Assembly: GCA_963738405.1 (NCBI GenBank) | Contig: CAVTWJ010000014.1 | Location: forward strand, 192,001 to 256,000 | Origin: a candidate division FCPU426 bacterium | GTDB taxonomy: Bacteria > Oederibacteriota > Muellerivitia > Muellerivitales > Muellerivitaceae | DNA: 64,000 nt | Direction: 5' to 3' | In this document: positions 1 to 20,652 of the stretch, in pieces | How positions within the stretch are numbered: position 1 is the stretch's first letter | How the letters are laid out: each line of letters begins with the position of its first letter | Program-made: the position numbers and the translations under genes | Notes under the pieces: model-generated | Seen by the model: only the letters and a program-made list of their open reading frames with translations | What the model was told of the DNA's origin: nothing | Database searches by the model: none

Positions 1-2903
1 GCCTTCAAGGCCGCTGAGGAGCCGGAAGGTTCTTGGCCCCAAACCAGAGACCCGCCCTCATAAGCCGTGATATGGGTCCAAGGCGTGTAGCTGGTGTAGG
101 CCGCGTAGCTCCAGTCGTTGTCCTGGAGCATGTTGCTCCAGTCGCTCTTGTTGAACCGGCTTTGGATCTGGATAGCCTGCCCAGGCTGGAGAACCAGATT
201 CCCCGTGAACTTGTAGCTGATGTAGTCGGTCTGGCCGCCCTGGCTGGTGGCAACAGTCGTGTGCAACACATCACTCGTCACTGAAGTCCCGGCAGGCATC
301 AACCCCGCCCAATCCACCCAGCTTTGGACGCTCTGGTTGGTGCAATCGCAGTTGAACCAGTAGCGCACTTCAACGTTATTCAGGTTCAAGGACCCGGACC
401 CTGTGTTGACCACCTCAATGAAGGGATGGGGGCTGTTGGTGGAATCGGTCGTGACCGACGACAACAGTTCCACGGTCAAGGCCGCAGCTCCGGAAGGCGT
501 GGGTGTGAAGGTAGCGGTTGGGGGCACCGGCGTGTTGGTAAAGGTGAATGTCGCTGTGGGCGGCACCGGCGTGTTGGTGTGGGTAAAGGTCGCCGTTGGC
601 GGAACCGCCGTGCTAGTACTGGTAACGGTCGGAGGCGCTGGGGTATTCGTGACCGTCGGTGGTACCGGCGTATTCGTCACCGTGGGCGGCACCGGACTAT
701 TGGTAGCCGTTGCCGTAGGCGGAACAGGCGTGCTGGTACTGGTAGATGTCGGAGGAGCCGCCGTATTCGTGGCTGTTGGAGGCGCCGGAGTGTTGGTAAC
801 CGTCGGCGGAGCAGGCGTATTGGTCACGGTCGGCGGTACCGGGCTGTTGGTAACCGTCGCTGTGGCAGGCACCGAGGTGAAGGTCGAAGTCGGCGGGATT
901 GCCGTATTCGTCGACGTTGGCGGCACGGCTGTGGCCGTTCTTGTGGCCGTCGACGTAAAGGTAGCGGTTGCGGTCGGCGTCCCCGTGGCTGTCGAAGTCC
1001 TCGTGGGGGTATTTGTAAAGGTTGGCGTAGCCGGTTGCGGAATGACCTGGATGGCTTCCACCATGGCGCTGGTATCGGTGCTGGTGGTTCCCGTAAAGGT
1101 GATGGTAATCACGCCGCCGGTGGGCGACACGTTGTTGATCACCTTGTCGTCCTGGGTGTTGGCGCCCACTTGGGCGTAAACGTCCAGGTTCGAAAGCGCC
1201 GTGCTTCCGTTGACGGCCACGTTGAAAACCCTGTCCCCTGTGGCGAAATCGCCCGAATAGGTCTCGGCGAATTTCAGGGTGACCTGGTAGCTCCCGGCTG
1301 GCACGTTGAAGGAATAGCTGAAGCTGTTCCCGTAGCGCTGGGTGTCGTAAAGGGTGGAATCGGAGGTGCCGGTCACGGCCGCTCCCTCAGCCACGGTGGT
1401 TCCGCCGCTGTAGTTCTCGTCCGCGGCCCAAACGTTGCTCGTGGTGTCCGTGTAAGCCGGACCGCCGGCGTTCACCCGCCAGCTGGAGGACACAATCGGA
1501 GTCGGTGTGGAGGTGACGGTGGGGGTGTGGGTAAAGGTGGCCGTGGGCGGGACGGGGGTGTTGGTGGCCGTGGGGGCCGACGGAGTGTTTGTCTTGGTCG
1601 GCGTAAAGGTAAAGGTCGCCGTCGGGTTGGTTACCCCCGAGACAACTCCCACGAAACTCGTGACGCTAGAGCCGGTCAAGGAATAGGTGAAACTGTTACC
1701 CGAGACTGCTACGGGGGATTTCGCAACAAGGTTATTGCTGCCGTCCGTCACCCAGGGGGTCACCGAAGTCACGTTGACGCCGTTAATGCTGAAAGTCTGG
1801 CTGGTGGTTGAACTGTTGTTGTTGATGGCGACGAAGACGATGGTCTGGGGTGAAGAGGTATTGGTATTTTTGAATGCGCTCACATTAACACCTGATGTCG
1901 GGCTCGCGGTTGCGCCCATGCGGTAATAACCAGGCCGGATGAACTTGCTGTAATTGCCCAGGACATAGGCCTTGATGGTGAAGGCGTTATTGCTGATCAG
2001 GTCGGTGAGCCACCAATAGTGAAAAGCGTTCATATTGGAATTAACCAGGCAGTTTTGTATCCATCCCGCTTCCGTCAATGCGCCCGGAATATCGGTGCTA
2101 TTCCCAGACATCTCAGTTTCCCACCATTCCTGATTCGTCACATGGGTGAAACCAAAGGAAGAAAGGGGCCCCGGATTGGGGGAACCATAAAGATGGGTCC
2201 CGATGATGCCGATCATGGGGGCCACGGTCGTGTCGTCCATGGCGGTCGAGGCCAGGTTCATCCCTCCGGTGTTGTCCGGCTCGGGGAGCATGATCTTGGT
2301 CGAAAGACCCGCGCTTTGGAGGGCGCTATGGAAAGCATTCGCGTAAACATCAAACTGGCCCGCCGTCCAAAGGCAGGCTTCGTAGGTGGGGTTGAAATTG
2401 GGTTCGTTCTGGATGGAAAGGGCGTAAAGGGGGGCGCCATGGCTTTGGGCATATTGGATGAAAGAGACTTGGTAAGAAGCTAATCCTGTGTCGGCGCTGT
2501 TGGGGGAGCCGGAGCCGGCGCCCAAAAAGGTATCGTTGCTGGCGCCGCCATTGACGTTATTGTTCGCCTTGTATTGGGCCGGGGGTGACCATTCGGTAGC
2601 CCATAAAAGGACATTGGGATTGACCGAATGGGCTGTCGCGAGGGTACTCACTTCCGGCGAGAAGTTGTTGTTGGGGTCGATGCGTGCCCGGAGGGAGCTG
2701 ATCCCGATGTGGCCGTTCACGTTGTCCTCGGCGAACAGGGCCTGGCCTAGGCTTCCGATACCGCTCCAGGCGCTGGAGGCCCCGATGCAATGGATGTACT
2801 GGTTGGTCTGGGTGGCGTCAACGGTACAGGTGCCGGCCAGTGCGGCAGAAGCAGCCGTGAAAATCACCGAGATGAAAAGACCCAGGAAATATTTTTTACC
2901 CAT
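1..2903 (-). CDS. Secreted GH30 glycoside hydrolase + malectin-like domain + Thr/Pro linker + CBM3; runs off the left window edge (absent from the ORF track)
   Basis: Manual translation from ATG 2903: MGKKYFLGLFISVIFTAASAALAG signal peptide; GH30 motifs TEWSPP, IQNEP, THLYG, WWETE, LGNYSKFIRPGYYR; malectin-like RVNAGG..LYDTQRYG..VTLKFAE..RVFNV; CBM3 VRYWF..IQSRFNKSDWSN..NDWS; frame stays open to position 1. Confidence 0.9.
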   Translation of the reverse strand, partial: MGKKYFLGLFISVIFTAASAALAGTCTVDATQTNQYIHCIGASSAWSGIGSLGQALFAEDNVNGHIGISSLRARIDPNNNFSPEVSTLATAHSVNPNVLLWATEWSPPAQYKANNNVNGGASNDTFLGAGSGSPNSADTGLASYQVSFIQYAQSHGAPLYALSIQNEPNFNPTYEACLWTAGQFDVYANAFHSALQSAGLSTKIMLPEPDNTGGMNLASTAMDDTTVAPMIGIIGTHLYGSPNPGPLSSFGFTHVTNQEWWETEMSGNSTDIPGALTEAGWIQNCLVNSNMNAFHYWWLTDLISNNAFTIKAYVLGNYSKFIRPGYYRMGATASPTSGVNVSAFKNTNTSSPQTIVFVAINNNSSTTSQTFSINGVNVTSVTPWVTDGSNNLVAKSPVAVSGNSFTYSLTGSSVTSFVGVVSGVTNPTATFTFTPTKTNTPSAPTATNTPVPPTATFTHTPTVTSTPTPIVSSSWRVNAGGPAYTDTTSNVWAADENYSGGTTVAEGAAVTGTSDSTLYDTQRYGNSFSYSFNVPAGSYQVTLKFAETYSGDFATGDRVFNVAVNGSTALSNLDVYAQVGANTQDDKVINNVSPTGGVITITFTGTTSTDTSAMVEAIQVIPQPATPTFTNTPTRTSTATGTPTATATFTSTATRTATAVPPTSTNTAIPPTSTFTSVPATATVTNSPVPPTVTNTPAPPTVTNTPAPPTATNTAAPPTSTSTSTPVPPTATATNSPVPPTVTNTPVPPTVTNTPAPPTVTSTSTAVPPTATFTHTNTPVPPTATFTFTNTPVPPTATFTPTPSGAAALTVELLSSVTTDSTNSPHPFIEVVNTGSGSLNLNNVEVRYWFNCDCTNQSVQSWVDWAGLMPAGTSVTSDVLHTTVATSQGGQTDYISYKFTGNLVLQPGQAIQIQSRFNKSDWSNMLQDNDWSYAAYTSYTPWTHITAYEGGSLVWGQEPSGSSAALK

Positions 2904-3000
2904 CGAAGCACCCCTTTGAATTTTCGCGACTTAAATTTCAATTAAATCGTTGTGAGCCAAGGACAAGGCATGGAAAGGCGTAGGGACCCTGACATCGATT

Positions 3001-3027
3001 AGTGTTTGGAGAATGCCGGTTTATTCC
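3001..3027 (-). promoter_or_regulatory. Putative ECF sigma promoter GGAATAAACC-N10-AAACACT upstream of the GH30 gene
   Basis: Same two boxes and spacing as at 7187-7213 upstream of the ECF sigma gene. Confidence 0.7.
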
Positions 3028-3081
3028 CGTCAGGCGACGGTTTTTATCCGGGAAGCGGGGAGGCTTATTTTATTAGGAAAA

Positions 3082-4413
3082 TCAGGGGTTTTGAGGGTGT
3101 TTAAGGTGGTATGTCCCCAACCATTGGCTTAAAGCTTGGTCGCTCGGGTTCAGGCGGAGGGCCTGTTCCAGGCATTGGAGAGCCTGGGCATTCTGGCCCA
3201 ATCGCAGGTAAACAATTCCCAGGTTCCGCCAGGCCCGGCTGTCCTGCGGGTTCGCCTGAACCGCCTGCTCATAGGGCCCTGTCAAACTGGAAGCCTGGTT
3301 CGCCGTGCCCGGGGTTGCCACGGCGGCGGGGAGTTCGAAACGCACTTCAACCTTCGATTTGGCGACTCCTTCCGGGAGGGGAGAGGGCATGGGCGTCGCC
3401 ACTACCGTAACCGGGAGGGCCTGAACCGTCACAGGTTTGGGGGAAACTGGGGTGGGATTGGCAAATTCGTATCCCACGCTAATACGGTGCGAGGTTCCCA
3501 GGTCGCCGTAAGGAACAAAGGCGTAGTCCAATTGAAAAGAACCTAACTTTACACCCGCTCCGGCAGTGAAACCCGTCAACCCGTTGATTTGGTTGTCAGA
3601 GAGCGCCCCTTGGTAACCCACCCGAAGGCTATAGTCCCGTTCAATGGTTCCTTCCAAACCGCATTGGAGGCGGCTCACGCCATTGGGCTCCCAGTCCCCC
3701 ACAAGAAGGGGGCAAAGATCCGCGCCCTTTCCCAAATACAGGATCGTCGAGAGGCCTAGGCGCAGATCCTGGGCCGGAGTTATGCCGGAAAGATCCGTCC
3801 CCAGTCCCGAGTAGGTCAAACCCAATCGAAAGTCAGGTGCCGGGATAAAGAGGGCGCCCACATCGCCGGACATACTCGTATAAAGCGCCTCAACGATCTT
3901 TTGTTGGAATCCGTGCAAGGCGATCCCCAGGGAAAATTCCCGCGCCACCCTAGTTCCCCAACCCAGGCTGAAGGCAGCGTCGCTGTCGGTGAAGGATCCA
4001 AGGTAAACCCCATTGGGATCCCGTTCATCCAAATTTCCCCAGGAAACATATTGAAGGGCCCCGGCGAAACCGCCCAGGGAGCCCGCGGGTAATCCGAAAA
4101 GAAGGGTCTCCTCGAAGGAACCTGCCAGATAGCTGTTATGGTTAATGGAAAGACTGGCGGCGCGCAATTGGGATAGCCCCGCGGCGTTAAAGAACAATGC
4201 CGAAGGATCGTCGGCGAGCCCCGCGAGGGCGTCCCCCAATGCGTCCGCCCGGGCCGAGGCCCCGAGAGCGGTGAGCGGAGTCTCCAGACCCGCGCCTGAA
4301 GAAACCGTCTGGACCGGAAGAGCCGTCTGCGGCAAGAAAAGAAACATGACGACGACCAAAATCGTTTTAGACCATCGTCGCGCCGTTTTGAAAGGGCGGA
4401 AAACCATTATCAT
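3082..4413 (-). CDS. PorV/PorQ-like (FadL-type) outer-membrane beta-barrel with C-terminal TPR
   Basis: Signal peptide; LGASARADALGDALAGLADDPSALFFNAAGL N-terminal motif; barrel end LDYAFVPYGDLGTSHRISVGYEF; TPR AWRNLGIVYLRLG..ALQCLEQALRLNP. Confidence 0.8.
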   Translation of the reverse strand: MIMVFRPFKTARRWSKTILVVVMFLFLPQTALPVQTVSSGAGLETPLTALGASARADALGDALAGLADDPSALFFNAAGLSQLRAASLSINHNSYLAGSFEETLLFGLPAGSLGGFAGALQYVSWGNLDERDPNGVYLGSFTDSDAAFSLGWGTRVAREFSLGIALHGFQQKIVEALYTSMSGDVGALFIPAPDFRLGLTYSGLGTDLSGITPAQDLRLGLSTILYLGKGADLCPLLVGDWEPNGVSRLQCGLEGTIERDYSLRVGYQGALSDNQINGLTGFTAGAGVKLGSFQLDYAFVPYGDLGTSHRISVGYEFANPTPVSPKPVTVQALPVTVVATPMPSPLPEGVAKSKVEVRFELPAAVATPGTANQASSLTGPYEQAVQANPQDSRAWRNLGIVYLRLGQNAQALQCLEQALRLNPSDQALSQWLGTYHLKHPQNP

Positions 4414-5840
4414 TTTTCGACCGCCAGAACCTGGGTCTTAAAGTTATCGGCCCGGCCCGAGGAGTAATTCAGCTCGACGCGGTAAAAATAATGTCCCGGC
4501 GCGAAGGCGGAAATGTTGAGAGTGCTTGATTGCAATCCAGACCCCTTGGGATCGCTCAGGGTGGCGGCAAGGTTTCCCCAGGCGTTCCAGATCTTGATAT
4601 TGGCGGTACCCGACTCGGCCATGGTGTAAACGAACTGCACGGTGTTCCCGCTGGTGGGGTTGGGAGCCACGTAGGGGTTGCCCCCAACAGGCGCGGGCGG
4701 TGTGGAAACAGGCGTAGGACAGGCGCCCGCCAGATTCATTTGGCCGTAATCGCTCGCGTTCGAATAATCGTCCGATTCGCCATTCCAGATGATTTGACCG
4801 TCCCGGCAATTGCCCCCGTTGTGGTTCACATCGACCCCTACATCAAAACCTAAAACCGTTCCGGGATTGGGACTGCCTATTCCTAATGTGGACCAGGGGA
4901 TCGAGGCCTCAATCACATATCCGGCGGGGATCGTCGTGGTCCGCATGCTGACCCCCGCGGTCCTTCCCTGGGACTCGGTAGCTGTCGTATCGTTCCATCG
5001 GAAAAAATATTCGAAGTCGGCATTCGTAACCGTGACACCTCGTGAATCCGCCGTATCCAGATAAAGTTCCACCGTCGAATTGACCCATACGGAGGCTGAT
5101 CCTGTATTCGTGAGCTGACTGTCAGTGACCGTTACGCCCAGATAAAGATTTGTCGAGTCCCATAGGGTCTTAAATTGGGCCGTGGTGCCATAAACATTGC
5201 CCAGCACAGTTTTGTTGACGGTATTCCAGCCTGTCGGGATTTCCCAGGGCCATTCGTTCAAAACCCCGTCCACGCTGACGCCCGCTTGGCAGGCGGAAGG
5301 TGTTTGGGGCGTGGGGGTGGGGTTGAGCGGGGCCCCCGAGAAGAGGTATTCCCGGGGTATATATTCCTGGGCTTGGGAAGGGCTCTGCCAGGCCAGTTGG
5401 ATGAGGTCCGTAGTTGGGTTGGCGCCGTTGGTGAAATAATCCAACTCGATCGAGACGGGCGTATTGGCGGTGAGCGTAATGACCCCTGCAAAGCCTCGGA
5501 TAGGCGGGGGGAAATCGGTCCATTGGTTGATGAGAACCTGTCCGTTGATGATCAGGCTCACACCCCCATTCACATCTGCGATGAAGGTGTAGGGTTCGCT
5601 ATAGGCGGGTTCCACTTGGCCCGTCCACTTCACCGAAAAGGAGGTGCCCGACATGCCCGGCTGGGGGGGACAGCCAAACCAGCGATAGCTGATCAGAGGA
5701 TCCACCACCGTTACCGCCGGGCTGGTCAAATTGGAGTTAATGTAATAGACGCCCTTGAGGCCGTCGCCGTTGAACTGGGCGAAGGAGGGTTTGGGGAGGC
5801 AAAGCAGAACAGCGCAAAGGGCGAATGGGATCCGTTTCAA
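4410..5840 (-). CDS. Secreted non-catalytic PA14 + CBM9/DOMON-like sugar-binding protein with T9SS-like C-terminal domain
   Basis: PA14 motifs GDGLKGVYY, FSVKWTGQVEP, IQLAWQSPS; CBM9-like VDGVLNEW, LWDSTNLYLGVTVTD, YVIEASIPWSTLG, GFDVGVD; tail PNP..IKIWNAWGN..APGHYFYRV. Confidence 0.8.
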   Translation of the reverse strand: MKRIPFALCAVLLCLPKPSFAQFNGDGLKGVYYINSNLTSPAVTVVDPLISYRWFGCPPQPGMSGTSFSVKWTGQVEPAYSEPYTFIADVNGGVSLIINGQVLINQWTDFPPPIRGFAGVITLTANTPVSIELDYFTNGANPTTDLIQLAWQSPSQAQEYIPREYLFSGAPLNPTPTPQTPSACQAGVSVDGVLNEWPWEIPTGWNTVNKTVLGNVYGTTAQFKTLWDSTNLYLGVTVTDSQLTNTGSASVWVNSTVELYLDTADSRGVTVTNADFEYFFRWNDTTATESQGRTAGVSMRTTTIPAGYVIEASIPWSTLGIGSPNPGTVLGFDVGVDVNHNGGNCRDGQIIWNGESDDYSNASDYGQMNLAGACPTPVSTPPAPVGGNPYVAPNPTSGNTVQFVYTMAESGTANIKIWNAWGNLAATLSDPKGSGLQSSTLNISAFAPGHYFYRVELNYSSGRADNFKTQVLAVEK

Positions 5841-5925
5841 GGCAGCCTCGAGAATGGTTCATTCGGACCGACCAAACCATTATTTACCCGGGGCCTAACA
5901 ACGCACCAGAGAATATTCGTGTTCT

Positions 5926-6603
5926 TTAGGGAGCCGTCGGCTGGAGCTTGATCCGGATGTTCTTGGACATGTGTGCCTCGCCCGCCTGCACATCAATGCG
6001 GTAATCGCCCGTGCCCGCCGCTTCCCCGTTATCCAAAAGGCCGTCCCATTTAAAGTCCCACCGCCCGGCCTGGACAAAACCGGCGTAAAGGGCCCTTACT
6101 TCCTTTCCGCCCGAATCGAGGATACGGACCGTCACGAGGGATTTTTGCGGCGCGTCCACCAGAACACTCAATTCTTGGCCTTCCTGACCGGGTCCGGCCG
6201 ATAAGGGTTGAATGGGAACGGGTTTTTGGACCACAGGTTTCAAGGTTGAAACGCTGGATTTTTCAATGGGTTGTTGGACGGTCTGCGGTTGAACCTGCAG
6301 AGGAACTTCCATTTTAGTTTGGGGCCAGAACTTCCAAAGGGCAGTCCCCCCGGCGGCCAGAACCACCAAAAGAAGCTTGGCCGCGCCGGACCAACCAACC
6401 GGGCCCGCGCCTCCGGGATGGGGAAGGGATTGCAGGCCCTGGGGGAGTGTCGGCTGGGGAAGGCCGGTGGCAAGATAATGCTGTTGGAGCATTTTCTCAT
6501 AGCTCAAAGCGGCATCGGGGGAACTTTCCAAAAGCTTGGAAAGGGCCGCATGTTCGGCCTCGCTCAGTTCCCTCGTGAAAAATTCTTGGACTAAATCAGC
6601 CAT
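5926..6603 (-). CDS. Putative single-pass anti-sigma factor with extracytoplasmic FlgD-Ig/CTD-like domain
   Basis: Overlaps the ECF sigma gene end; N-terminal helical domain (ELSEAEHAALSKLL), one TM segment, C-terminal VRILDSGGKEVRAL..WDGLLDNGEAAGTGDYRI. Confidence 0.7.
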   Translation of the reverse strand: MADLVQEFFTRELSEAEHAALSKLLESSPDAALSYEKMLQQHYLATGLPQPTLPQGLQSLPHPGGAGPVGWSGAAKLLLVVLAAGGTALWKFWPQTKMEVPLQVQPQTVQQPIEKSSVSTLKPVVQKPVPIQPLSAGPGQEGQELSVLVDAPQKSLVTVRILDSGGKEVRALYAGFVQAGRWDFKWDGLLDNGEAAGTGDYRIDVQAGEAHMSKNIRIKLQPTAP

Positions 6604-7168
6604 TTTCGCCTTCTTTTATGAACTGCTCGACTAGCACCTTGAGCGCCTTTTTGCACCGGGAAAGCCTCGACATCACGGTCCCCAAGGGGATCTTGAGCGT
6701 CTTTCCGACCTCGATATAACTCATTTCCTTCATTTCTCGTATTTGAATAATCTCCCGGCATTCCTGGCCTATCTTTTCCAGGCATTTCTCGATGATTCCC
6801 AGCTTGAAGCGTTTTTCCTGTTCCCGATCCCCAGCTTCCTGCCGGTCCTTGGCCGCGGATTGGAGCAAAAAATCTAATTCAGCGTGTTCTTGACTCACCA
6901 GCTTCGCCCTTTGCCGGTACCGGTTGTGGCACTTAAAGATGCAAATCTGCGTCAGCCAGGTCGAGAGACTGGACCGGAACTCGAATTCGGGCAATTTTTC
7001 AAAGGCTGTGATAAAGGTTTCTTGGACCAAATCTTCAGCCTCCGGGTCCTGATAGCCCAATAAATACACGCAGTTTCGATAAAGTCTTTCCCGATAGGTG
7101 ACGAAAAACTGGGTCTTAGCTTGATCGTCGCCTTGGAGGATCTTTTGAACCAACTCCCGTTCGTCCAA
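6596..7168 (-). CDS. ECF (sigma-70 group 4) RNA polymerase sigma factor
   Basis: Region 2 AEDLVQETF..FEFRSSLSTWL; region 4 MSYIEVGKTLKIPLGTVMSRLSR. Confidence 0.95.
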   Translation of the reverse strand: MDERELVQKILQGDDQAKTQFFVTYRERLYRNCVYLLGYQDPEAEDLVQETFITAFEKLPEFEFRSSLSTWLTQICIFKCHNRYRQRAKLVSQEHAELDFLLQSAAKDRQEAGDREQEKRFKLGIIEKCLEKIGQECREIIQIREMKEMSYIEVGKTLKIPLGTVMSRLSRCKKALKVLVEQFIKEGENG

Positions 7169-7186
7169 GAGTGCCCCTTACAGATG

Positions 7187-7213
7187 AGTGTTTTAACGTG
7201 AATGGTTTATTCC
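7187..7213 (-). promoter_or_regulatory. Putative autoregulatory ECF promoter GGAATAAACC-N10-AAACACT
   Basis: Lies 18 nt upstream of the sigma start codon; repeated at 3001-3027. Confidence 0.7.
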
Positions 7214-7274: not shown

Positions 7275-9089
7275 TTAACCTCGCTGGGATTTTTTCCGGA
7301 ATTGCTGTGGTGATTGAGCGGTTTTTCGCCGAAAGAACCGCGCGAAGTGGGAGCCGGGTTTGAATCCGCAGGATTTGGCGACTTGAGAGACTGGCAGGCT
7401 TCCAGTTTTCAAAAGCCGTTTCGCTTCCTCCAGCCGCAGGTTCTGTAAGTAGTTTTCCAAGCCCATTCCCGCGGTTTTCTTGAAATGACGGCTAAGAGTG
7501 GCGGTCGATACATCCGCAAGCCTCGCGAGTTTGGCGATTCTCAATGGTTCTCGGAAATGCTCGTTCAAATAATCACGGACCTTTTCCATTGAAAAGGCCG
7601 TCTTCAAAGCGCCAGGACCCTGCATGAGACGCAAAAGTTTTTCCAACGCGTCCTTGAAAGAGAAAACCATTTCCTGCGTGGTCCCGGCTTTCTCCAGGGA
7701 AAGCACCAGGTTTTGGTGGAGTTGATCGGCCTCCTTTTCGCTTAAGTTCCCTTGGGCGCGGATCGTATCTCTCATCTGGATCAAAGCGTACTGCAGGTGC
7801 AGGCGGATGCCGTCAGGGTCGTGCATGGAGAGGGTCAGGACCTGTTTCAAGAATTCATCCAGCACCGCTTCCATGCCTGAGAGGGATGAAACCTCGATGC
7901 GCTTCTTAAGTTCCCGCAAGAGGCTCGACAATTCCAAGATCCCTTCTGAAACTTCCAACCGGACGGGTTTGAAAAAAACAATTTCCTGGCCCGTTGCCCG
8001 GCCCAAGTGCAGGGCCAACACCGCCTGCTGATAGGAATCCAAAAGCGTTTCACCGGGCGTGACAGTTTCTCCCACTCCCACCAGAACAGGCCCCTCCAAT
8101 TCTTCCTGGGCGAAAGCGTGAATCCTTTCGGTAAGTTCCCTCAATTCATCCCGGCGTTGGGGCCGGCTCTTGGAAAGATCGGGCGAGGTGATGAAAAGTG
8201 CGCCGTAATTTTCAAGCCGTCCTCCCAAGGTTTGGGGCAGGGTCTTCGCGAAGCGGAAAGCCCGCCGCTGGAAACGGTAGATCCGAAACATTTCCTCAAT
8301 GGGGTCTCTCTTCTTCCCTTGAATGGTCAGCGGAATGGCTGTCAGGACCGTCGTCGGAATACGGCTGATGCCGATATCGGACTTGATCCAGTCCATTTTC
8401 GGAACTTCGGTGTTCCAAAGGGGCGTAGCCTGCCGGGTGGGAAGTCCCAGGGCCCAATCCATGAAATAACTGTGGGGAAAATGCCTGGAGAATATTTTCG
8501 TCGAAAGTTCCTGAAGACGGCGGGGCGCGTTGGAGAGATTTTCCCGGACCAAGATATCGGCGAACAGTTTCAACGCTTCCCGGTAAGCCGAAAGAACCGG
8601 CCCTTCCAGAACGGGTGTATCGAGCATGACGCGGACAAACTGCCGGAATTCGGGGTTTTCAGGAGTTGCGGTTTGTCCCGTCAATTGGTTCCAGCTCATT
8701 TTGAGGAGGGGGTAGGTCACTTCCTCTTTTGCGAAGGCGCCGGATAGGATCGTCCCAAACCGCACCTTCCCCCGCCGGATGGGCATGAAAATGTCATAAA
8801 ACCCCAGGGTCTCCAAAAGAAGCGGCTGGTCCTTGCCCTGTTTCGCCTCATATTCTGGATCAGTGAGTTTGTCCCAATTAAAAGATTGTCCGTATTTCTT
8901 CTCGAAATCGAAGAGCGAGGCGTCCCGGCGGTGATAATTGGCGGCCAACCATCCCTCGGTGCCGCTTCCCGGGTCTTTGGTGATGATGAAACAATTCAGG
9001 TCGACGTAATACCGAAGGATGTTGATGAACCCTTCATATCCAATGAGGTTCTCGAACACCCGGAAGGTTTTGGAAGGACGGGGAGCCAT
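7275..9089 (-). CDS. AraC-family transcriptional regulator with large N-terminal sensor region (possibly PocR-like plus CdaR-type GGDEF-like domains)
   Basis: C-terminal AraC double HTH (LSRHFKKTAG..RLEEAKRLL..VAKSCGF..FARFFRRKTAQSPQQFRK); central VLVGVG..SYQQAVLAL. Confidence 0.85.
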   Translation of the reverse strand: MAPRPSKTFRVFENLIGYEGFINILRYYVDLNCFIITKDPGSGTEGWLAANYHRRDASLFDFEKKYGQSFNWDKLTDPEYEAKQGKDQPLLLETLGFYDIFMPIRRGKVRFGTILSGAFAKEEVTYPLLKMSWNQLTGQTATPENPEFRQFVRVMLDTPVLEGPVLSAYREALKLFADILVRENLSNAPRRLQELSTKIFSRHFPHSYFMDWALGLPTRQATPLWNTEVPKMDWIKSDIGISRIPTTVLTAIPLTIQGKKRDPIEEMFRIYRFQRRAFRFAKTLPQTLGGRLENYGALFITSPDLSKSRPQRRDELRELTERIHAFAQEELEGPVLVGVGETVTPGETLLDSYQQAVLALHLGRATGQEIVFFKPVRLEVSEGILELSSLLRELKKRIEVSSLSGMEAVLDEFLKQVLTLSMHDPDGIRLHLQYALIQMRDTIRAQGNLSEKEADQLHQNLVLSLEKAGTTQEMVFSFKDALEKLLRLMQGPGALKTAFSMEKVRDYLNEHFREPLRIAKLARLADVSTATLSRHFKKTAGMGLENYLQNLRLEEAKRLLKTGSLPVSQVAKSCGFKPGSHFARFFRRKTAQSPQQFRKKSQRG

Positions 9090-9198: not shown

Positions 9199-12100
9199 TT
9201 ATCTCAAAACCAGCAGTTTGCCGATGGTGCGCTTGCCGTTGACGGTCACAGTCACGTAATAAATGCCGTTGGCGAGGTTGTTCCCTCCCCTGCCTGTCAG
9301 GGTTAAGGTGATAGCTGTGCCGGAGGGTATAGAATCGAAGGTTTCGTCTTTCACCTTCCTGAAGGCCAGGGTGTAAACCTCCACCCGCACGTTCGATAGG
9401 CCCAAATAAGGCGGCGGAAGAATCTGTACCGTGGGGCCTGTCCCTGGATTGGGATAGATTTCAATAACCCCCGGGACGGCCGTCGGAGCCGGGGTGATAG
9501 ATGGGGTTGCCGTAACCGAAGGTGTGGCGGTGCCTGTTGGTGTCGAGGTCGGCTGTTGTACCACCACCGTATAGCCTGTTACCGGCAATCCCGTGAAAAA
9601 GGCTGGCTGGCCTCCGTTATTCCCGCTCTTCCCGGTCATAGCGCCGATCGAAAGATTGTAGGTGCCAGAAGACGAATTGGAGAAATTCACGACAATCTGC
9701 AGCGTCTGCGTACCGGAGAGTAGGACATAGTTCCCAAGTGTCAGGTTGGCCGTGGTCCCTGAGAAAACCGCTGGTGTGCCCGCAGTGGTTCCATTGATGA
9801 CTACGCTGACACTTGTGATGTCCGCCGTGTTGCCCGTGCCCGAGTCCATAAGGGTCAGATTTGTCAAAGTCACCGGCGCCCCGCTCGGGTTGGTCACACT
9901 TACTTGTATGGCCGTCACGTTGCCGCTTCCAGAGATCGTATTCACCGTTCCAACTAATCCCGAGCCCATATTGACGACCGCCGAGGTAGCCGTGGAGGTC
10001 GGAGTGTAGGTTTGGGTAGAAGTCAGAGTCGGGGTAAAGGTTTTGGTACTCGTAACAGTCGGTGTGAAGCTTGGCGTCCAACTAGAGGTGTTAGAGGCGG
10101 TAGGGGTGGAGGTAGAAGTAAAAGTACTGGTGGAGGTAGCTGTCGCGGTTGAGGTAAAGGTTGGGGTTTGAGTGTAGGTAAAGGGCGGGGTATCGGTGGG
10201 AGTAGGGGTTACGGTAGGCGTATCGGTCACCGTGGGGCTGTTGGTGGAAGTGAAAGTCGAAGTCACGGTCGGAGTAGCAGTCAGGGTGGCGGTGCGGGTC
10301 GGCGTGAAGGTTTGGGTAGGTGAAAGAGTATTCGTCGAGCTGTATTGCGCAGTGGAGGTGGCCGTTCCCGTGAGGGTGGGGGTCGGGGTCAGGGTTGCCG
10401 TCTGTGTGAATGTTTGAGTGGCCGTCATCGTATTAGTCTTGGTGTTGGTGGTAGTGGCCGTGGATGTCGTAGTCGGCGTCAGGGTCGTGGTTTTAGTGTT
10501 GGTGACGGTCGGCGTGGAAGAAGCTGTGGGGGATTGGGTGGGAGTGGAAGTTAGAGTCGCAGTCAGTGTCGCTGTTTTGCTATTGGTGACCGTCGGGGTG
10601 GAGGTTTGAGTCAGGGTTGAAGTTTGAGTAAAGGTTAGGGTTTGGGTCTTGGTCGCGGTTGGGGTGGAGGTGGGAGTGGCAGTCAGGGTATAGGTCCTTG
10701 TAACCGTCGGTGTGACGGTTAGGGTGAAGGTCGAGGTATTACCCGGGGTGGGGGAACTCGTCGGACTGGGAGTCGGGGTTCGGGTGGATGTGCCGGAGGG
10801 CGTAGGGGTAATGGTGCGGGTGGAGGTGATGGTATTGCTGGGAGTCGATGTTTTGGTCGGCGTGGCGGTAATTGTTGGGCTTGGAGTGTTCGTTCGGGTC
10901 GCTGTCAATGTCGGGGTGGGTGTGGCAGTACTAGAAACGGACACGACCCCCACGAAGGAAACCACGCTGGAAACCGGCATCGAGTAAGTAAAACTGTTCC
11001 CGGAAACTGGTACAGCAGCCTGCTGAACTAGGCCGTTGCCGACATCGGTCAGCCAGGGCGTGACCGATGTCACGGTAACGCCGTTCAGGGCGAAGGTCTG
11101 GTTCACCGAACTGGCGTTGTAGTTGATGGCCACGATGACGATGGTGGTGGGCGAGGAAGTGTTGGTGTTCTTATATGCGGAAACCGTCACGCCGGCCTGG
11201 GGGCCTTCGGTCGCTCCCATGCGGTAATAGCCGGGCCGGATGAACTTGGAATAATTGCCCAGCACGAAGGCCGCGTCGGTGAGATTGGTTCCATTGATCA
11301 GGTCGGCCAACCACCAATAATGGAAGGAGTTCATCTGGCCCTCGACCAGGGACTGGTGGGCCCAGCCCGCCACGCACAGGCCCGCCGAATTCTGGGCCGT
11401 GATAAGCCCGGTAGTACAGCCAGAAATCTCCGTCGCCCACCACTCCTGGTTCGTCAGGTGGGTATAACCGTAATTCGAGGCGATCTGGGCAAGAGTGTCG
11501 TAAAAGGTGCCGTACAAGTGGGTGTTGATGATGCTGACCAGGGGGGCCGCATTGGCGTCGGACATGGTGGCGGTGCCTAGGTTCATGCCCCATTCATTCG
11601 GCGGTTCCGGCATCATGATCTTGGTGGTAAGCCCCGCGCCCGTGATGGAGGCGGCCATGCAGGGGATGAAAATGTCGAACTGGCCGGTGGTCCAATTGGC
11701 GCCTTCATAGGTGACCTCGAAACTGGGTTCGTTTTGAGCCGAGATGGAGTAAAGGCTCACACCGGTATAGGTTTTGCAGTATTGGAGGTATTGAGTCAGG
11801 TATTGGGCGTAGCCAGTGTCGGCGCTGTTGGGGGCGTTGCCCGTGTCGGAACCAGTGAAGGCACCGACGTTGGTGACCCCCGCGTTCACAACCTCCCCAT
11901 CGACGCTGTTGTTGGTTTTGTACATGGCAGGGGGAGACCACTCGGTGCTCCAGAAAAGGACGTTGGGGTTGACCGCATGGGCCGCAGTGATATTGTTCAG
12001 CTCGCTGTTCCAGGCGCCGGTGTTGCCGCCGACGGCGGTGGGGTCGATGCGGGTCCTCAGCGAGGTCAGCCCGATGTGGCCGTTCACCGTGTCGTCGGCG

Positions 12101-12282
12101 AACAGGGCCTGCCCCATGCTTCCCACGCCGCTCCAGGCGCTGGAGGCCCCGATACAATGGATATATTGGTTCGTCTGGGTGGCGTCCACTGTGCAGGTAC
12201 CCGCCCAAAGAGTATGCGTGACAAAAAAAAACCCAAAGGCCAGCGTGCAATTTTGAATGTTTAGGGCGAATAGTTTTTTCAA
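9199..12282 (-). CDS. Secreted GH30 glycoside hydrolase + Thr-rich linker + Ig-like domain + T9SS-like CTD (start probably TTG 12282; ORF track starts at 12345)
   Basis: QNEP and WWATE catalytic motifs; paralog of 1-2903; CTD IYPNP..VYTLAFRKV..LANGIYYV..KLLVLR; GGAG RBS before TTG. Confidence 0.9.
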   Translation of the reverse strand: MKKLFALNIQNCTLAFGFFFVTHTLWAGTCTVDATQTNQYIHCIGASSAWSGVGSMGQALFADDTVNGHIGLTSLRTRIDPTAVGGNTGAWNSELNNITAAHAVNPNVLFWSTEWSPPAMYKTNNSVDGEVVNAGVTNVGAFTGSDTGNAPNSADTGYAQYLTQYLQYCKTYTGVSLYSISAQNEPSFEVTYEGANWTTGQFDIFIPCMAASITGAGLTTKIMMPEPPNEWGMNLGTATMSDANAAPLVSIINTHLYGTFYDTLAQIASNYGYTHLTNQEWWATEISGCTTGLITAQNSAGLCVAGWAHQSLVEGQMNSFHYWWLADLINGTNLTDAAFVLGNYSKFIRPGYYRMGATEGPQAGVTVSAYKNTNTSSPTTIVIVAINYNASSVNQTFALNGVTVTSVTPWLTDVGNGLVQQAAVPVSGNSFTYSMPVSSVVSFVGVVSVSSTATPTPTLTATRTNTPSPTITATPTKTSTPSNTITSTRTITPTPSGTSTRTPTPSPTSSPTPGNTSTFTLTVTPTVTRTYTLTATPTSTPTATKTQTLTFTQTSTLTQTSTPTVTNSKTATLTATLTSTPTQSPTASSTPTVTNTKTTTLTPTTTSTATTTNTKTNTMTATQTFTQTATLTPTPTLTGTATSTAQYSSTNTLSPTQTFTPTRTATLTATPTVTSTFTSTNSPTVTDTPTVTPTPTDTPPFTYTQTPTFTSTATATSTSTFTSTSTPTASNTSSWTPSFTPTVTSTKTFTPTLTSTQTYTPTSTATSAVVNMGSGLVGTVNTISGSGNVTAIQVSVTNPSGAPVTLTNLTLMDSGTGNTADITSVSVVINGTTAGTPAVFSGTTANLTLGNYVLLSGTQTLQIVVNFSNSSSGTYNLSIGAMTGKSGNNGGQPAFFTGLPVTGYTVVVQQPTSTPTGTATPSVTATPSITPAPTAVPGVIEIYPNPGTGPTVQILPPPYLGLSNVRVEVYTLAFRKVKDETFDSIPSGTAITLTLTGRGGNNLANGIYYVTVTVNGKRTIGKLLVLR

Positions 12283-12356
12283 GGAGACTCCGTCACATCT
12301 GTCGGCATCCAGGTTGTTGAGAATGAAATTTCTTAATCTATCCAATTTTTAATAGC

Positions 12357-15300
12357 TTACCGCAAAACTAGCAGTTTGCCGATGGAACGGTTCCCGTTGA
12401 CGGTTACGACTACGTAGTAGATGCCGTTGGCGAGGTTGTTCCCACCCCTGCCCGTCAAGGTCAGGGTCACGGCCGTTCCTGATGGAATGGAATCAAAGGT
12501 CACGTCCTTCACCTTCCTGAAGGCCAGCGTGTAAACCTCCACCCTCACGTTCGATATCCCAATATAGGGCGGTGGTAGAACCTGTACCGTCGGGCCTGTC
12601 CCTGGGTTGGGGTAGATTCCCACATGCCCTGGGATGGCCGTGGGGGCCGGAGTGATGGAGGGGGTCGCTGTCACCGAGGGTGTGGCCGTTTCGGTTGGTG
12701 TCGACGTCGGCCGCGTTACCACCACCGTATAGCCTGTCACTGGTAATCCCGTGAAGGATGCCGCCTGGCCTCCGTTGTTGCCGCTCGTTCCAGTCATGGT
12801 GGTGATCGAAAGATTGTAAGTGCCAGAAGAAGAATTAGAGAAATTCACGACAATCTGCAGGGTCTGGGTCCCCGGCGGTAGGACATAGTTGCTTAGAGTC
12901 AGGTTGGCTGTGTTTCCCGTGAAGACCGCCTGTATGCCAGCAGCGGTTCCATTGATCACTACGCTGACCCCTGTAATATCAGCTGTATTGCCCGTTCCTG
13001 AGTCAGTGAGTGTCAGGTTATTCAAGGTGACAGGCGCCCCGCTGGGGTTGGTCACACTTACTTGTATATCCGTTATATTACCGCTTCCAGAAATTGTATT
13101 CACCGTTCCCACGAATCCCGAGCCCATATTTACTACCGCTGAGGTCGCCGTGGAGGTAGGCGTGTAGGTTTGGGTGGAAGTCAGGGTCGGGGTAAAGGTT
13201 TTGGTACTCGTAACAGTCGGTGTGAAGCTTGGCGTCCAACTGGAGGTGTTAGAGGCGGTAGGGGTGGAGGTAGAAGTAAAAGTGCTGGTGGAGGTAGCTG
13301 TCGCAGTTGAGGTAAAGGTTGGGGTTTGAGTGTAGGTAAAGGGCGGGGTATCGGTGGGAGTGGGGGTTACGGTAGGCGTATCGGTCACCGTAGGGCTGTC
13401 GGTGGAAGTGGAGGTCGAAGTCACAGTCGGAGTAGCAGTCAGGGTGGAGGTGCGGGTCGGCGTGAAGGTTTGGGTAGGCGTGTATGTCTGTGTCGGGGTG
13501 CTGGTAAAAGTGGGGCTCAAGGTCATGGTGGGGGTTCTGCTAGCCGTGCTTGTTTGGGTCGGGGTAGAAGTCGTGGTAACGGTCAGGGTATGGGTGGGTG
13601 AGAGGGTGTTCGTCGGGCTGAATTGAGAGGTGGGGGTCGGGGTTTCGGTGGTGGTGGGAGTATTAGTAACCGTGTTAGTCGTTGTACGGGTGGATGTTGA
13701 AGTAAGCGTTGCCGTCAGGGAATAGGTTGAAGTGGCTGTTAAGGAAGCCGTAGGCGTATTGGTCTGGGTTCGGGTGGATGTAGAGGTACCTGTCTGGGTG
13801 GAGGTAACGGTGGTTGTGAGTGAAAGGGTAGGTGTTGGAGATAGGGTGTTGGTGGCGCTGAATTGGAAGGTGGCTGTAGGGGTCCCAGTAAACACAGGAG
13901 TAGAGGTCAAAGAAGATGTAGCGGTTTGAGTGGGGGTTACCGTGGCCGTAAAGGTCCGACTGGTAGTAGGAGTTTGAGTCAGGGTGGTCGTTTTGGTGTT
14001 GGTGGTGGTCGCGGTCAAGGTGGGGGTACTGGTACTGACGGGCGTGGAAGTGGTAGTAGCCGTGGAGGTAGAGGTACGGGTGGATGTTCCCGTAACCGTG
14101 AGGGTGGCCGTGGGAGTCACCGTCTGGGTGGCGGTCAGGGTGGTCGTTTTCGTCACGGTGGGGGTGGAAGTTTGGGTCGCCGTCAAGGTGCGGGTGGCAG
14201 TGGAGGTAGAAGTTGAGGTATTCGCCGGGGTGGGAGAGGAAGTCGAGCTCGGAGTAGGTGTACGGGTTGCGGTACTGGAAGGTGTAGGCGTGTTCGTAAG
14301 AGTCGGAGTGATCGTATTACTGGGAGTAGATGTCTTTGTAGGACTGGGGGTCGGCGTTAGGGATGGCGTGTTTGTTCGAGTGGCCGTCAAGGTGGGGGTG
14401 GGAGTGTTGGTCGATCCAGAAGAAATATCGCCGTACAAAATCCCGCGACCATTAGTGCCTATATACATCCGTCCATAAACGGTCTCATCACCGCCGGCAT
14501 ACCCCGCGGCTCCAAACTGGTGGTTGGCGTCGTTGATGCGGGTCCAGGTAGTCCCCACCCCGTCGTCGCAACGGAAGAAACCATAGGTGCCGCTCACCGT
14601 CCCCACTAGATAGACGGCCGGATGGTTGGCGGGGGGAGCCCCATTGGTGGATATACCAAACCCAACCGCAGTGGCGCTGGAAACATTGGCAATGGTGGCC
14701 TTCGTGGTTCCCCCATTGGTAAATCGGAACAAACCGCTTCCACCCGCGGGCACCCAAACCTCTCCCGCCTCCCCAAAAACCGCCCGAGGCATCCCGGTTC
14801 CAGTGAAGGTGTTGACCGAGGCAAAACTAGACCCGCTATTCGTGCTGACGTAAAGGGTGTTGCCGCTGGTGGCATAGATAGTAGTGGGGTTGACCCGGTC
14901 AGAGGCCAACTGGGCTCCCGAGGGAAGCCCCGTACAGGTAGTCCAGGCCCCGCCCAAGGATGAGGCATAAGCCGGAGAACCATAACCGTTATAGGGAGAA
15001 ACAACTACATGAGAGCCATTGGCGGCCACAGCTACCGAGCCCATTTCATTCGAAGTTCCATAGCCCGGAGGAGCGCTCCCCCAAGGGGTCCAGGTTTGGC
15101 CGTTGTTGGTGGAATAGGCCACGTCGGAAGTGGTCGTACTGCTGTTCCCCACTCTCACCACGTCGTTAGTGTTTGACTCGGCAAAGTCCACGCAGTTGGT
15201 GTTGGTGAAGCTGGGATTACAGTACATGCCTCCCGCGGGCGATTGGGTCAAGTTGGTATGGCGCATCCCCGAGATGTCCCCCACGGCGCTGAAAAAGATT

Positions 15301-16622: not shown

Positions 16623-16669
16623 TTCAGCAAATCCTTTTTCAAAGCAAAAACGTTATGAGTTGATATTAC

Positions 16670-16682
16670 AAAACCGGTTACA
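16670..16682. promoter_or_regulatory. LacI-type operator-like site AAAACCGGTTACA
   Basis: Near-palindrome upstream of GH74; AACCGGTTACA core recurs at 20592 and 24665. Confidence 0.5.
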
Positions 16683-16860
16683 TCGTTGAAATATATGGCA
16701 TTGAAGCGATACCAAAGTTTACCGAATTCTTCATTTTTCAGCGTAGAAAACGCTTTTCCGTTTCACGGTTAACTTCGATTGTTTTGAAGGAATTGAAATA
16801 AATTTTGAAGCGTTTCCCGTTTGACCGGCCACACAAGTCTTAATGTTTCACCCGCTTCAT

Positions 16861-19800: not shown

Positions 19801-20649
19801 GATTCCGCCTTCGGTGTTGTTCGACTTCAGCCTCAACCCGTACTGGGTGCCGTTAAACACGCAGTTGTCGACCAGAACGTTGGAGACCCCTCCCGAAGTG
19901 ATGCTTCCGATGGAAAGACCGTGCCCCGTGCCGAAGGTACAGCCCGAGACCGTGACCCCGTTGCAGGCGTTGGAACCGCCGATCTGCACCACGTCGTCCC
20001 CGTCGCTGATGTAGCAGTTTTGGATGTTGACGTTCACGCCGCGCAGGTCGATGCCGTCGGTATTGGGGGAAGGCCAGGGGGCGGTGATGGAAAGGGCCGA
20101 AGCCAAAATGTTGGTGCCGTTGCCCAGAAACTGGATATGGAACTTGGGCGAGTTCTGCACCGTGATGCCCGACACCGTCACGCTCGTGCATCCCGTGAGC
20201 TCGATCATGGCGGGCGGGCGGTTGTCCGTTCCCCCGCCGTTGAAATAGGTCCACCATTCCTGCCCCTGGCCGTCCATGACGCCCGAACCGTTGATGGTGG
20301 TATTGGTCAGCTTGGAGCCGTAGAGAAAATCGGCGCTCACCGGATAGGCCGGGTGGCTTCCGGTGGCCGTCATGGGAAGCATCATGAGGGTGGCCCCGGC
20401 GGAAATTTGGAAGATCATGTTGCTCTTGAGGGTCATCGGGCCGCTATAGAAGGTGCCAGCTGGAACCAAGACAGTACCGTTGGTTCCTACCGCGTTGATG
20501 GCGGCCTGAATGGCGGCGGCGTTATCAGCATTACCCGTCGAGGCGTTATAGGGCGCCGAGGTAATATTGATGGTTTGGGAATTGGCGGTTGAACCGGTTA
20601 CACAAAAGAGGCCTATCAAAGTGAACAATGAAATGAATTTAAGTTTCAT
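16861..20649 (-). CDS. Bifunctional secreted pectinase: GH28 polygalacturonase + GH53 endo-beta-1,4-galactanase, PT linkers, T9SS-like CTD
   Basis: GH28 NTDGID, GDD, GHG, RLKS; GH53 [44 protein letters not shown]. Confidence 0.92.
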
Positions 20650-20652
20650 CTT

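Follow-up and report, generated by a model that had tools for sequence, protein, structure and literature searches.

A conserved ECF sigma factor unit with a PorV-like barrel and an exported, tagged lectin, probably controlling xylan-enzyme genes in an uncultured soil bacterium

The subject of this study is a stretch of 64,000 nucleotides (positions 192,001 to 256,000 of contig CAVTWJ010000014.1, assembly GCA_963738405.1; hereafter the window) from a candidate division FCPU426 bacterium. Four minus-strand genes at window positions 3082-7168 encode an extracytoplasmic function (ECF) sigma factor, a candidate anti-sigma factor, a secreted PA14-CBM9 protein with a type IX secretion system (T9SS) sorting tag, and a PorV-like barrel. 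Because the set recurs within the genome and across the family, we conclude that it is a conserved unit and not a chance neighbourhood. The unit probably acts as a cell-surface detector of plant xylan that turns on neighbouring xylan-enzyme genes, by a route to enzyme-gene control that is probably not yet described in print. We put at about even the chance that the unit is a cell-surface signalling device that works through the contacts proposed below, with a plug-in head (here PA14 and CBM9) setting its specificity.

The unit in the window

The genes and promoters concerned are as follows (window coordinates):

6596-7168, minus strand: ECF sigma factor, 190 aa, TTG start; Sigma70_r2, Sigma70_r4_2 and TIGR02937 above their cut-offs
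5926-6603, minus strand: candidate single-pass anti-sigma factor, 225 aa, assigned by position and architecture
4410-5840, minus strand: secreted non-catalytic tagged protein, 476 aa; signal peptide, PA14, CBM9, type A sorting tag
3082-4413, minus strand: PorV/PorQ-family barrel with a TPR tail, 443 aa; NF033709
7184-7213, minus strand: ECF-type promoter of the sigma operon; -35 element GGAATAAACC at 7204-7213, then a -10 element of CACTCAT type, some 45 nt ahead of the TTG start
2998-3027, minus strand: the ECF-type promoter again, 124 nt upstream of the GH30 gene; top genome-wide score
3-2903, minus strand: GH30 (XynC-like)-malectin-CBM3 gene, predicted regulon member; C-terminal sorting tag

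The sigma and anti-sigma genes overlap by 8 nt and the tagged-protein and barrel genes by 4 nt; the gap between the anti-sigma and tagged-protein genes is 85 nt. A further 178 nt separate the barrel gene from the GH30 gene, which extends beyond the window (full gene C14:191637-194903) and whose product scores 166.9 bits against NF052681, below the cut-off of 650. Genes of carbohydrate-active enzymes (CAZymes) lie on both sides, GH30-malectin-CBM3 downstream and a GH28+GH53 fusion, PL4, GH127 and others upstream. An earlier reading made from the letters of the window (the original prediction) had described four co-oriented genes with two overlapping junctions inside a CAZyme cluster, and model scores confirm this description domain for domain. 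No enrichment was seen inside the unit either of terminator-like sites (10 versus 7.9 expected) or of sigma-70 promoter-like sites (1 versus 2.1 expected).

Recurrence of the unit

The 3.18-Mb host genome holds three full units, on contigs C14 (that of the window), C11 and C23, and one sigma/anti-sigma pair alone, on C9; the sigma factors of C11, C23 and C9 are paralogues of that in the window. The C11 unit repeats the gene content and order of the C14 unit and likewise has a PA14+CBM9 head, and the C23 unit is permuted, its order being tag-only protein, barrel, sigma, anti-sigma. Every one of the 31 family genomes searched has the unit, in 1-10 copies. At E ≤ 1e-40 all 31 match a profile of the barrel with its TPR tail (1-8 copies), and at E ≤ 1e-12 all 30 other family genomes match an anti-sigma profile. 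Gene neighbourhoods were inspected for 81 anti-sigma matches with E below about 1e-15, taken from 150 matches listed, 190 further matches lying outside this sample. A barrel gene lay within 3 kb, always on the same strand, in 63 of the 81; in five it was found at 3-6 kb, in three further away, and in ten the contig had no barrel match, many of these ten contigs being short. The conserved synteny of barrel and anti-sigma genes, on which the original prediction hinged, is thus observed.

Outside the family the distribution is narrow. Among 68 other genomes of the phylum, a full-length anti-sigma protein is present in one (G075, three copies); elsewhere in these genomes the Ig domain alone matches, on large proteins. 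Close relatives of the barrel-TPR protein in a wider contig collection amount to two loci, L016 and L017 (L016 is the same DNA as L126 and was counted once). A profile search of 1.84 billion representative proteins returned 273 at E ≤ 1e-30. In the best 150 of those 273, 130 proteins are 201-338 aa long, nearly all matched over almost the whole profile, and 20 are multi-repeat giants; the database names of these proteins are only "hypothetical" or "FlgD Ig-like domain containing".

Some anti-sigma copies are interrupted by an in-frame stop or are split, among them G020:C11 (one TGA), G044:C26:342416-343051 (two pieces) and L126/L016 6652-7098, at the anti-sigma place. These copies may reflect decay or assembly errors.

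A promoter code for local target genes

An ECF-type promoter of the form GGAATAAACC-N-CACTNAT precedes the sigma gene, the adjacent GH30 gene and a nearby GH43 gene. Upstream of sigma genes in general, the motif reads GGAATA(A/T)(A/T), a spacer of 14-16 nt and a CACTA-like block, and ends about 15-20 nt before the start codon. A two-block position weight matrix (PWM) was built from the 16 of 19 sigma-upstream regions in which the motif is conserved; L129, L130 and L131, where it was cut off, not evident or contained N in the stretch, were left out.

When the whole genome was scanned with this matrix, the five best sites all belonged to units, three of them being training sites. The highest score, 26.7, belonged to the untrained site at 2998-3027 before the GH30 gene. 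Two genes further on, a GH43-CBM6-malectin-CBM3 gene is preceded at 100 nt by a site of score 23.3, and the sigma promoter of the window also scored 23.3. The maximum in a reversed-genome control was 20.7, so that at 21 or above there were five real sites against none in the control. The sequence GGAATAAACC occurs twice in the 64-kb window, exactly at both promoter sites (chance mean 0.21; two occurrences were reached in 3 of 100 shuffles). In 20 other loci, totalling 301.5 kb, 19 sites scored at least 20, six of them training sites, versus none in the control. Untrained sites precede the first enzyme gene past the unit, GH30, in L116, L117 and L134, a giant NHL protein gene in L135, and the divergent neighbouring gene in units of the permuted order seen on C23.

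The -10 element comes in several flavours: ACACNAAT in xylan units, ACACTATA in tag-only units, CACTAG in units with NHL heads, and CATTATT in L122, at the sigma site and at three other sites of the locus. Within a locus, the target sites share the flavour of the sigma's own site and change along with it from locus to locus, and this co-variation is the best evidence here that a local sigma would read local targets. The predicted regulon contains CAZymes, as the original prediction had anticipated, the top genome-wide match lying before a GH30 gene; the sites themselves are observed, and their use by the sigma is presumed.

A serpin gene (L014 5136-6467, minus strand; G000:C23) is divergent from a tag-only unit and has a promoter match of 19.4, 247 nt upstream.

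Properties of the four proteins

The sigma factor contains Sigma70_r2 (E 1.4e-12, 47.6 bits) and Sigma70_r4_2 (E 4.6e-7, 29.8 bits) and scores 85.9 bits against TIGR02937 (cut-off 42.9). With regions 2 and 4 only, it has the domain content of an ECF sigma factor; specific equivalog models all scored below their cut-offs.

We infer from position and architecture that the protein encoded at 5926-6603 is an anti-sigma factor. Its AlphaFold2 model (mean pLDDT, the predicted local confidence, 77.8) begins with three helices (pLDDT about 90 or more); a membrane helix (74-92) and a disordered linker rich in P and Q follow, and residues 146-218 form a beta sandwich. FlgD_ig matches at residues 142-208 (E 1.9e-12, 47.4 bits; cut-off 27). 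When the tail was compared with sorting-tag models, neither TIGR04183 nor PF18962 matched at E ≤ 0.1, and only FlgD_ig and FlgD models did. A sequence search of solved structures with the anti-sigma profile likewise returned FlgD entries only (E 2e-12), and neither anti-sigma nor tag entries. At the profile level, the tail aligns with the module tag, i.e., the tag of the unit's secreted protein, with an hhalign probability of 86.6% (E 4.5e-6, 65 columns). At the fold level, its best match is FlgD (E 2.5e-4), followed by PorZ (1.5e-3), PorU (2.4e-3) and the RgpB tag (5.1e-3), and it also resembles two tag chains from translocon complexes with bound NucA- and RemA-CTD, 8glk_D and 8gl6_D (about 5e-3). 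Because the curated models miss and homology is evident from profiles and folds, the tail (about 142-218) is described here, by sequence and model comparison, as a tag-like FlgD-type Ig domain homologous to secretion tags, not as a certified tag. The resemblance to a FlgD-Ig or secretion C-terminal domain (CTD) that the original prediction had proposed therefore holds; of the two model families against which the tail was to be tried, FlgD_ig matched and the T9SS type A model did not. The anti-sigma-tail profile matches the C-termini of 15 of 37 large neighbouring proteins and the module-tag profile those of 8 of 37. The idea of two cargo-tag classes, one of them like the anti-sigma tail, was dropped, as the GH30 and GH43 tags passed neither profile genome-wide.

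The tagged protein consists of PA14 (26-162), CBM9 (190-372) and a T9SS type A sorting domain (TIGR04183, 391-457; 30.5 bits, cut-off 23), which leave no space for a catalytic domain. Pfam Por_Secre_tail (PF18962) scores 25.1, slightly below its cut-off of 27, and our own module-tag profile, CTDmod, matches at E 8e-48, which marks the tag as a module-specific subtype.

The barrel protein scores 107.9 bits against the PorV/PorQ family model NF033709 (cut-off 90) and stays below the equivalog cut-offs of PorV (NF033710, 36.9 versus 250) and PorQ (NF033711, 99.2 versus 220); by these sequence scores it is a PorV/PorQ-family paralogue, neither PorV nor PorQ proper. Its AlphaFold2 model (pLDDT 77.5) has 14 strands (about 87-316), a low-confidence Pro-rich linker (323-370) and a C-terminal tail of four helices (371-438) that scores as a two-repeat TPR (match at 381-433). 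In Foldseek the model's top hits are the PorV chains 8gl6_F (E 1.2e-13) and 6h3i_F (E 1.3e-11), with FadL and TodX next. A 14-strand outer-membrane barrel has both termini in the periplasm, and the modelled TPR tail is for this reason placed there.

A barrel of the same type occurs in a different setting in L137 (G000:C11:37001-55000). There, a PorV-like barrel with a TPR tail (L137:7708-9339) directly follows a 2435-aa protein. The next open reading frame (ORF) has HATPase_c_2 (RsbW-like), sCache, HAMP and SpoIIE phosphatase domains, and after it a STAS protein is encoded. The PorV-TPR barrel type may thus also feed a partner-switching module.

Gene orders and exchangeable heads

The anatomy of the unit was compared in a sample of 20 loci from 17 other genomes, with ORFs picked crudely and scored with our own profiles. 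In 18 of the 20, the gene next to that of the barrel encodes a protein ending in the module-type tag. The two exceptions are L131, where the contig ends 1.3 kb past the barrel gene, and L120, where the crude picker gave no such ORF. Three gene orders were seen: sigma, anti-sigma, tagged protein, barrel (order 1, that of the window); tagged protein, barrel, sigma, anti-sigma (order 2); and sigma, anti-sigma, barrel, tagged protein (order 3). Across all three, wherever both were found, the tagged protein adjoins the barrel gene. A match to the sigma profile stands beside the anti-sigma gene in 14 of the 20 loci, and in L132 the sigma gene is about 1.4 kb away; in L116, L118, L119, L125 and L135 the picker left no sigma ORF, mostly keeping an opposite-strand ORF instead. 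In L118 and L134, profile searches of the genomes put the anti-sigma gene at the expected place.

The head of the tagged protein is variable. PA14+CBM9 heads occur in six loci (the window, L013, L116, L117, L118 and L134), and in all six GH30 and/or GH62 enzymes with malectin and CBM3 modules follow; in the C11 copy (L013), GH62 is preceded by a malectin-CBM3 protein. A pectate lyase+malectin head (L119) adjoins GH28, and heads composed of a GH59_C-lectin or LamG plus DUF11 (L016/L126, L017, L129) adjoin PL4, GH53, GH9 and GH8. NHL propeller heads are found in L123, L124, L128 and L135, with giant NHL proteins alongside in L124 and L135, and a Kelch head in L125. Finally, five loci (L014, L121, L122, L127 and L133) encode tag-only proteins of 118-141 aa that consist of a signal peptide and the tag. 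The head thus changes between units and matches the neighbouring genes, which fits the lectin as a separate sensor.

Host and surroundings

The host, an uncultured soil bacterium, has about 18 PorV/PorQ-family genes, the barrel of the unit being one of them, and many of its large proteins carry sorting tags. A SprA-like ORF of 1973 aa was matched in four pieces, each below cut-off. Models of GldK, GldL and GldM found no match in the genome, which is 90.7% complete (GldL and GldM controls were silent as well, and GldN was not part of the search), and a search with the PorU model returned only the tag tails of other proteins. The export system of the host may be a reduced or divergent type IX-like system. 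A search of sequencing runs returned no RNA run and three soil DNA runs from one study, with shares of 0.06-0.23.

Upstream of the sigma gene, an AraC-family regulator (7275-9089, minus strand, 604 aa), with a long N-terminal part to which no family is assigned, sits between the unit and the pectin-type enzyme genes at 9199-24615. Since the window contains no PWM site of 17 or more besides the two described, these pectin genes are probably under other control, perhaps that of the AraC-type gene. At 16861-20649 (minus strand), a single 1262-aa protein unites GH28 (59-375) and GH53 (573-862) catalytic domains. The enzymes near it have long Pro/Thr-rich linkers in common, and several carry malectin and CBM3 modules. 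Further along, two 271-aa integrase-core (rve) transposase genes with identical Pfam scores lie in inverted orientation (42302-43117, minus strand; 45595-46410, plus strand) and enclose a 440-aa ORF without a family (43570-44892), a composite-transposon-like layout. A 336-aa fusion of a Fic/DOC domain with a MarR-type winged helix (28186-29196, minus strand) adjoins metH.

Proposed mechanism and alternatives

We propose that the anti-sigma factor would hold the ECF sigma at the inner membrane. After export, the PA14-CBM9 protein would stay attached to a PorV-like barrel of its own through the tag, which would not be cleaved off, with the head on the cell surface; such tag-on retention at a private barrel is suggested by analogy, because PorU-PorV, PorZ-PorQ and PorA-PorV provide precedents. 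The linker and TPR tail of the barrel would lie in the periplasm, where the barrel protein may meet the tag-like Ig domain of the anti-sigma factor, a step towards which structure prediction points weakly. Binding of a xylan-type polymer by the head, or an altered occupancy of the barrel by the tag, would shift this contact and free the sigma. Transcription from GGAATAAACC-N-CACTNAT promoters would then cover the operon of the sigma itself and the xylan-enzyme genes next to it. The head would be a plug-in part, other copies of the unit carrying other heads, or none, near other targets.

The contact between barrel protein and anti-sigma tail was modelled with barrel residues 34-443 and anti-sigma residues 125-225, using our own alignments. 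The complex scored 0.37 (0.36, 0.37 and 0.43 in separate runs), the best of three controls scoring 0.00. Among 157 solved complexes, 116 reach the mark for that score, as do 2 mismatched pairs out of 215; among those at 0.60 or under, only 18 of the 157 solved complexes reach it, together with both passing mismatches. Agreement between the runs is at least 55% of contacts, with a partner pLDDT of at least 68. The structure check that the original prediction had envisaged for anti-sigma tail and barrel thus gave a predicted contact that weakly suggests an interaction. Co-divergence was followed by a distance-matrix (mirror-tree) comparison of the 13 of 25 units that have all six parts, a weak comparison in view of crude ORF picking and the relatedness of the units. 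Distances of the anti-sigma tail follow those of the barrel and of the tag, with r 0.67 in both cases (0.45 and 0.46 as partial r given sigma). There are hints in these data that barrel and tag, rather than the TPR, which is short and very conserved, set specificity.

Several observations weigh against the signalling route proposed above. The anti-sigma tail does not track the TPR (r 0.16, same 13 units), and the weakly predicted complex is compatible with either the TPR or the barrel as the part that is touched. As published, PorV binds tags on its outer face, which a domain tethered to the inner membrane could not reach. The N-terminal domain of the anti-sigma factor matches no anti-sigma model in Pfam or NCBIfam, and the C9 sigma/anti-sigma pair has no adjacent barrel or tagged protein. 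Finally, the tag-only versions indicate that the lectin head is not essential and that ligand binding by the head cannot be the core mechanism. The original prediction, which had made a separate exported lectin the sensor, is thus partly supported, as a head that changes with its neighbours agrees with it. Its alternative, in which the secretion machine engages the anti-sigma tail itself, may also hold. Because tag-only versions exist, the core device is probably the triad of tag, barrel and anti-sigma tail, and the heads would be add-ons that couple this triad to an outside ligand.

A more far-reaching form of the signalling reading is possible, if doubtful. The anti-sigma factor would carry a decoy sorting tag that competes with the tag of the surface protein for the private PorV-like barrel. 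Tags would then act as signalling ligands, and barrel occupancy, set outside by the head, would be read by the transcription machinery. The tagged protein and the barrel-TPR protein would replace TonB-dependent transducers in this lineage and may couple to partner-switching modules.

Alternatively, the unit could be an export-load sensor of the PorA or FlgM kind, in which the tag is the signal and no glycan is sensed directly. A tagged protein waiting in the periplasm would bind the Ig domain of the anti-sigma factor or compete for the barrel or secretion machine, sigma activity would report cargo clearance by the private barrel, and heads would only tune retention. In its favour, a bare tag serves in the five tag-only units, and the tag of Porphyromonas gingivalis PorA alone activates PorY from the periplasmic side (PMC12152298). 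The anti-sigma tail is also homologous to cargo tags, and tail, barrel and tag co-diverge beyond what sigma accounts for, although the 13 related units make this weak evidence. However, in all units examined that have a head, it fits the target genes nearby, a match superfluous for a pure load sensor, and the targets are specific enzyme genes, not secretion-machine genes. We regard this explanation as unlikely.

In a simpler view, which we consider quite improbable, the unit is an ordinary ECF operon. Its sigma/anti-sigma pair would respond to some other cue, for instance stress on the envelope or a sugar in the periplasm that binds to the Ig domain, and lectin and barrel would be mere products, a surface anchor keeping substrate or enzymes close to the cell. 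In favour of this view, glycans can be ligands of Ig-like domains, the four genes apparently form one operon from the sigma promoter (no internal site at PWM 15 or above), and the C9 pair lives without barrel or tagged protein. Against this, the barrel-tag pair stays with sigma and anti-sigma through three gene orders in at least 17 genera, and the anti-sigma tail is tag-like rather than CBM-like. Moreover, the barrel-tag pair is not an obvious product in order 2, because the recognisable sigma-type promoter there falls after the barrel gene (L014, L121, L127).

Returning to the unit as a cell-surface signalling device, cell-surface signalling to ECF sigmas is known almost only through TonB-dependent transducers, and for type IX tags a part in signalling has been demonstrated in one case, PorA. 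If true, the present proposal would add a second, self-contained and modular example of tag signalling, with a different receiver and exchangeable sensor heads. The readable promoter code predicts the enzyme genes controlled by each copy of the unit, so that substrate-specific regulons could be read from metagenomes, and an uncultured soil lineage rich in plant-cell-wall enzymes becomes open to concrete experiments.

Comparison with known systems

In the FecA-FecR-FecI system, and likewise in Bacteroidota polysaccharide loci with SusC-like/anti-sigma/ECF units, adjacent uptake or degradation genes are controlled by an ECF sigma together with a single-pass anti-sigma factor and an outer-membrane barrel. 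The logic of barrel, anti-sigma and ECF sigma is the same here, but the barrel is of the FadL/PorV type and the ligand-binding part is a separate tagged protein; no TonB-dependent transducer, N-terminal signalling domain or FecR domain was found in the four proteins. In RsgI-SigI of Clostridium thermocellum, a CBM or PA14 sensor controls plant-cell-wall enzyme genes through an alternative sigma factor, with the sugar-binding module fused to the anti-sigma factor in a single-membrane cell. The present unit shares the CBM/PA14 sensor modules, the alternative sigma and the kind of target genes; in contrast, its sugar-binding module is a separate secreted protein in a two-membrane cell. Membership in either the FecR or the RsgI group was rejected on domain tests. 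In the FlgM-sigma28 system, soluble FlgM is itself exported, which couples anti-sigma activity to the secretion route. Here too anti-sigma activity would be tied to secretion, and the tail is FlgD-like in sequence, but the anti-sigma factor is membrane-anchored, and its tail cannot leave the cell.

In the full-text literature searched, a scope outside which most subscription journals fall, no description of a PorV-like barrel arranged with an anti-sigma factor was found. The main text of the ECF reclassification (PMC7826278) names type IX only in a reference, and one supplement is free of FlgD, PF13860, PorV and Por_Secre_tail. In the T9SS pairs PorU-PorV, PorZ-PorQ and SprB-SprF, a dedicated PorV-like barrel serves a protein with an uncleaved tag, the genes often being adjacent (PMC10202324). 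The dedicated barrel adjoining the tagged-protein gene is a feature they share with the unit described here. However, those pairs are structural or adhesin anchors, and the available sections of that paper report none with a TPR tail or a link to sigma and anti-sigma factors.

The closest published system is PorA-PorV-PorXY-SigP of P. gingivalis, which the original prediction had not named and in which the PorA tag binds PorV and signals to PorY (PMC7712824, PMC12152298). The likeness to the PorA-PorV-PorY/PorX-SigP circuit would extend to a lectin-like tagged protein, tag-on at PorV, a tag as the signal to an inner-membrane sensor, and an ECF sigma as output. Where that circuit has a histidine kinase, the proposed receiver here is an anti-sigma factor that sits in the membrane and ends in a tag-like Ig domain. 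The unit has its own PorV paralogue, extended by a TPR tail and belonging to the same operon as its partners, and its predicted targets are glycan enzymes instead of secretion-machine genes. Finally, the unit is present in multiple copies with exchangeable heads.

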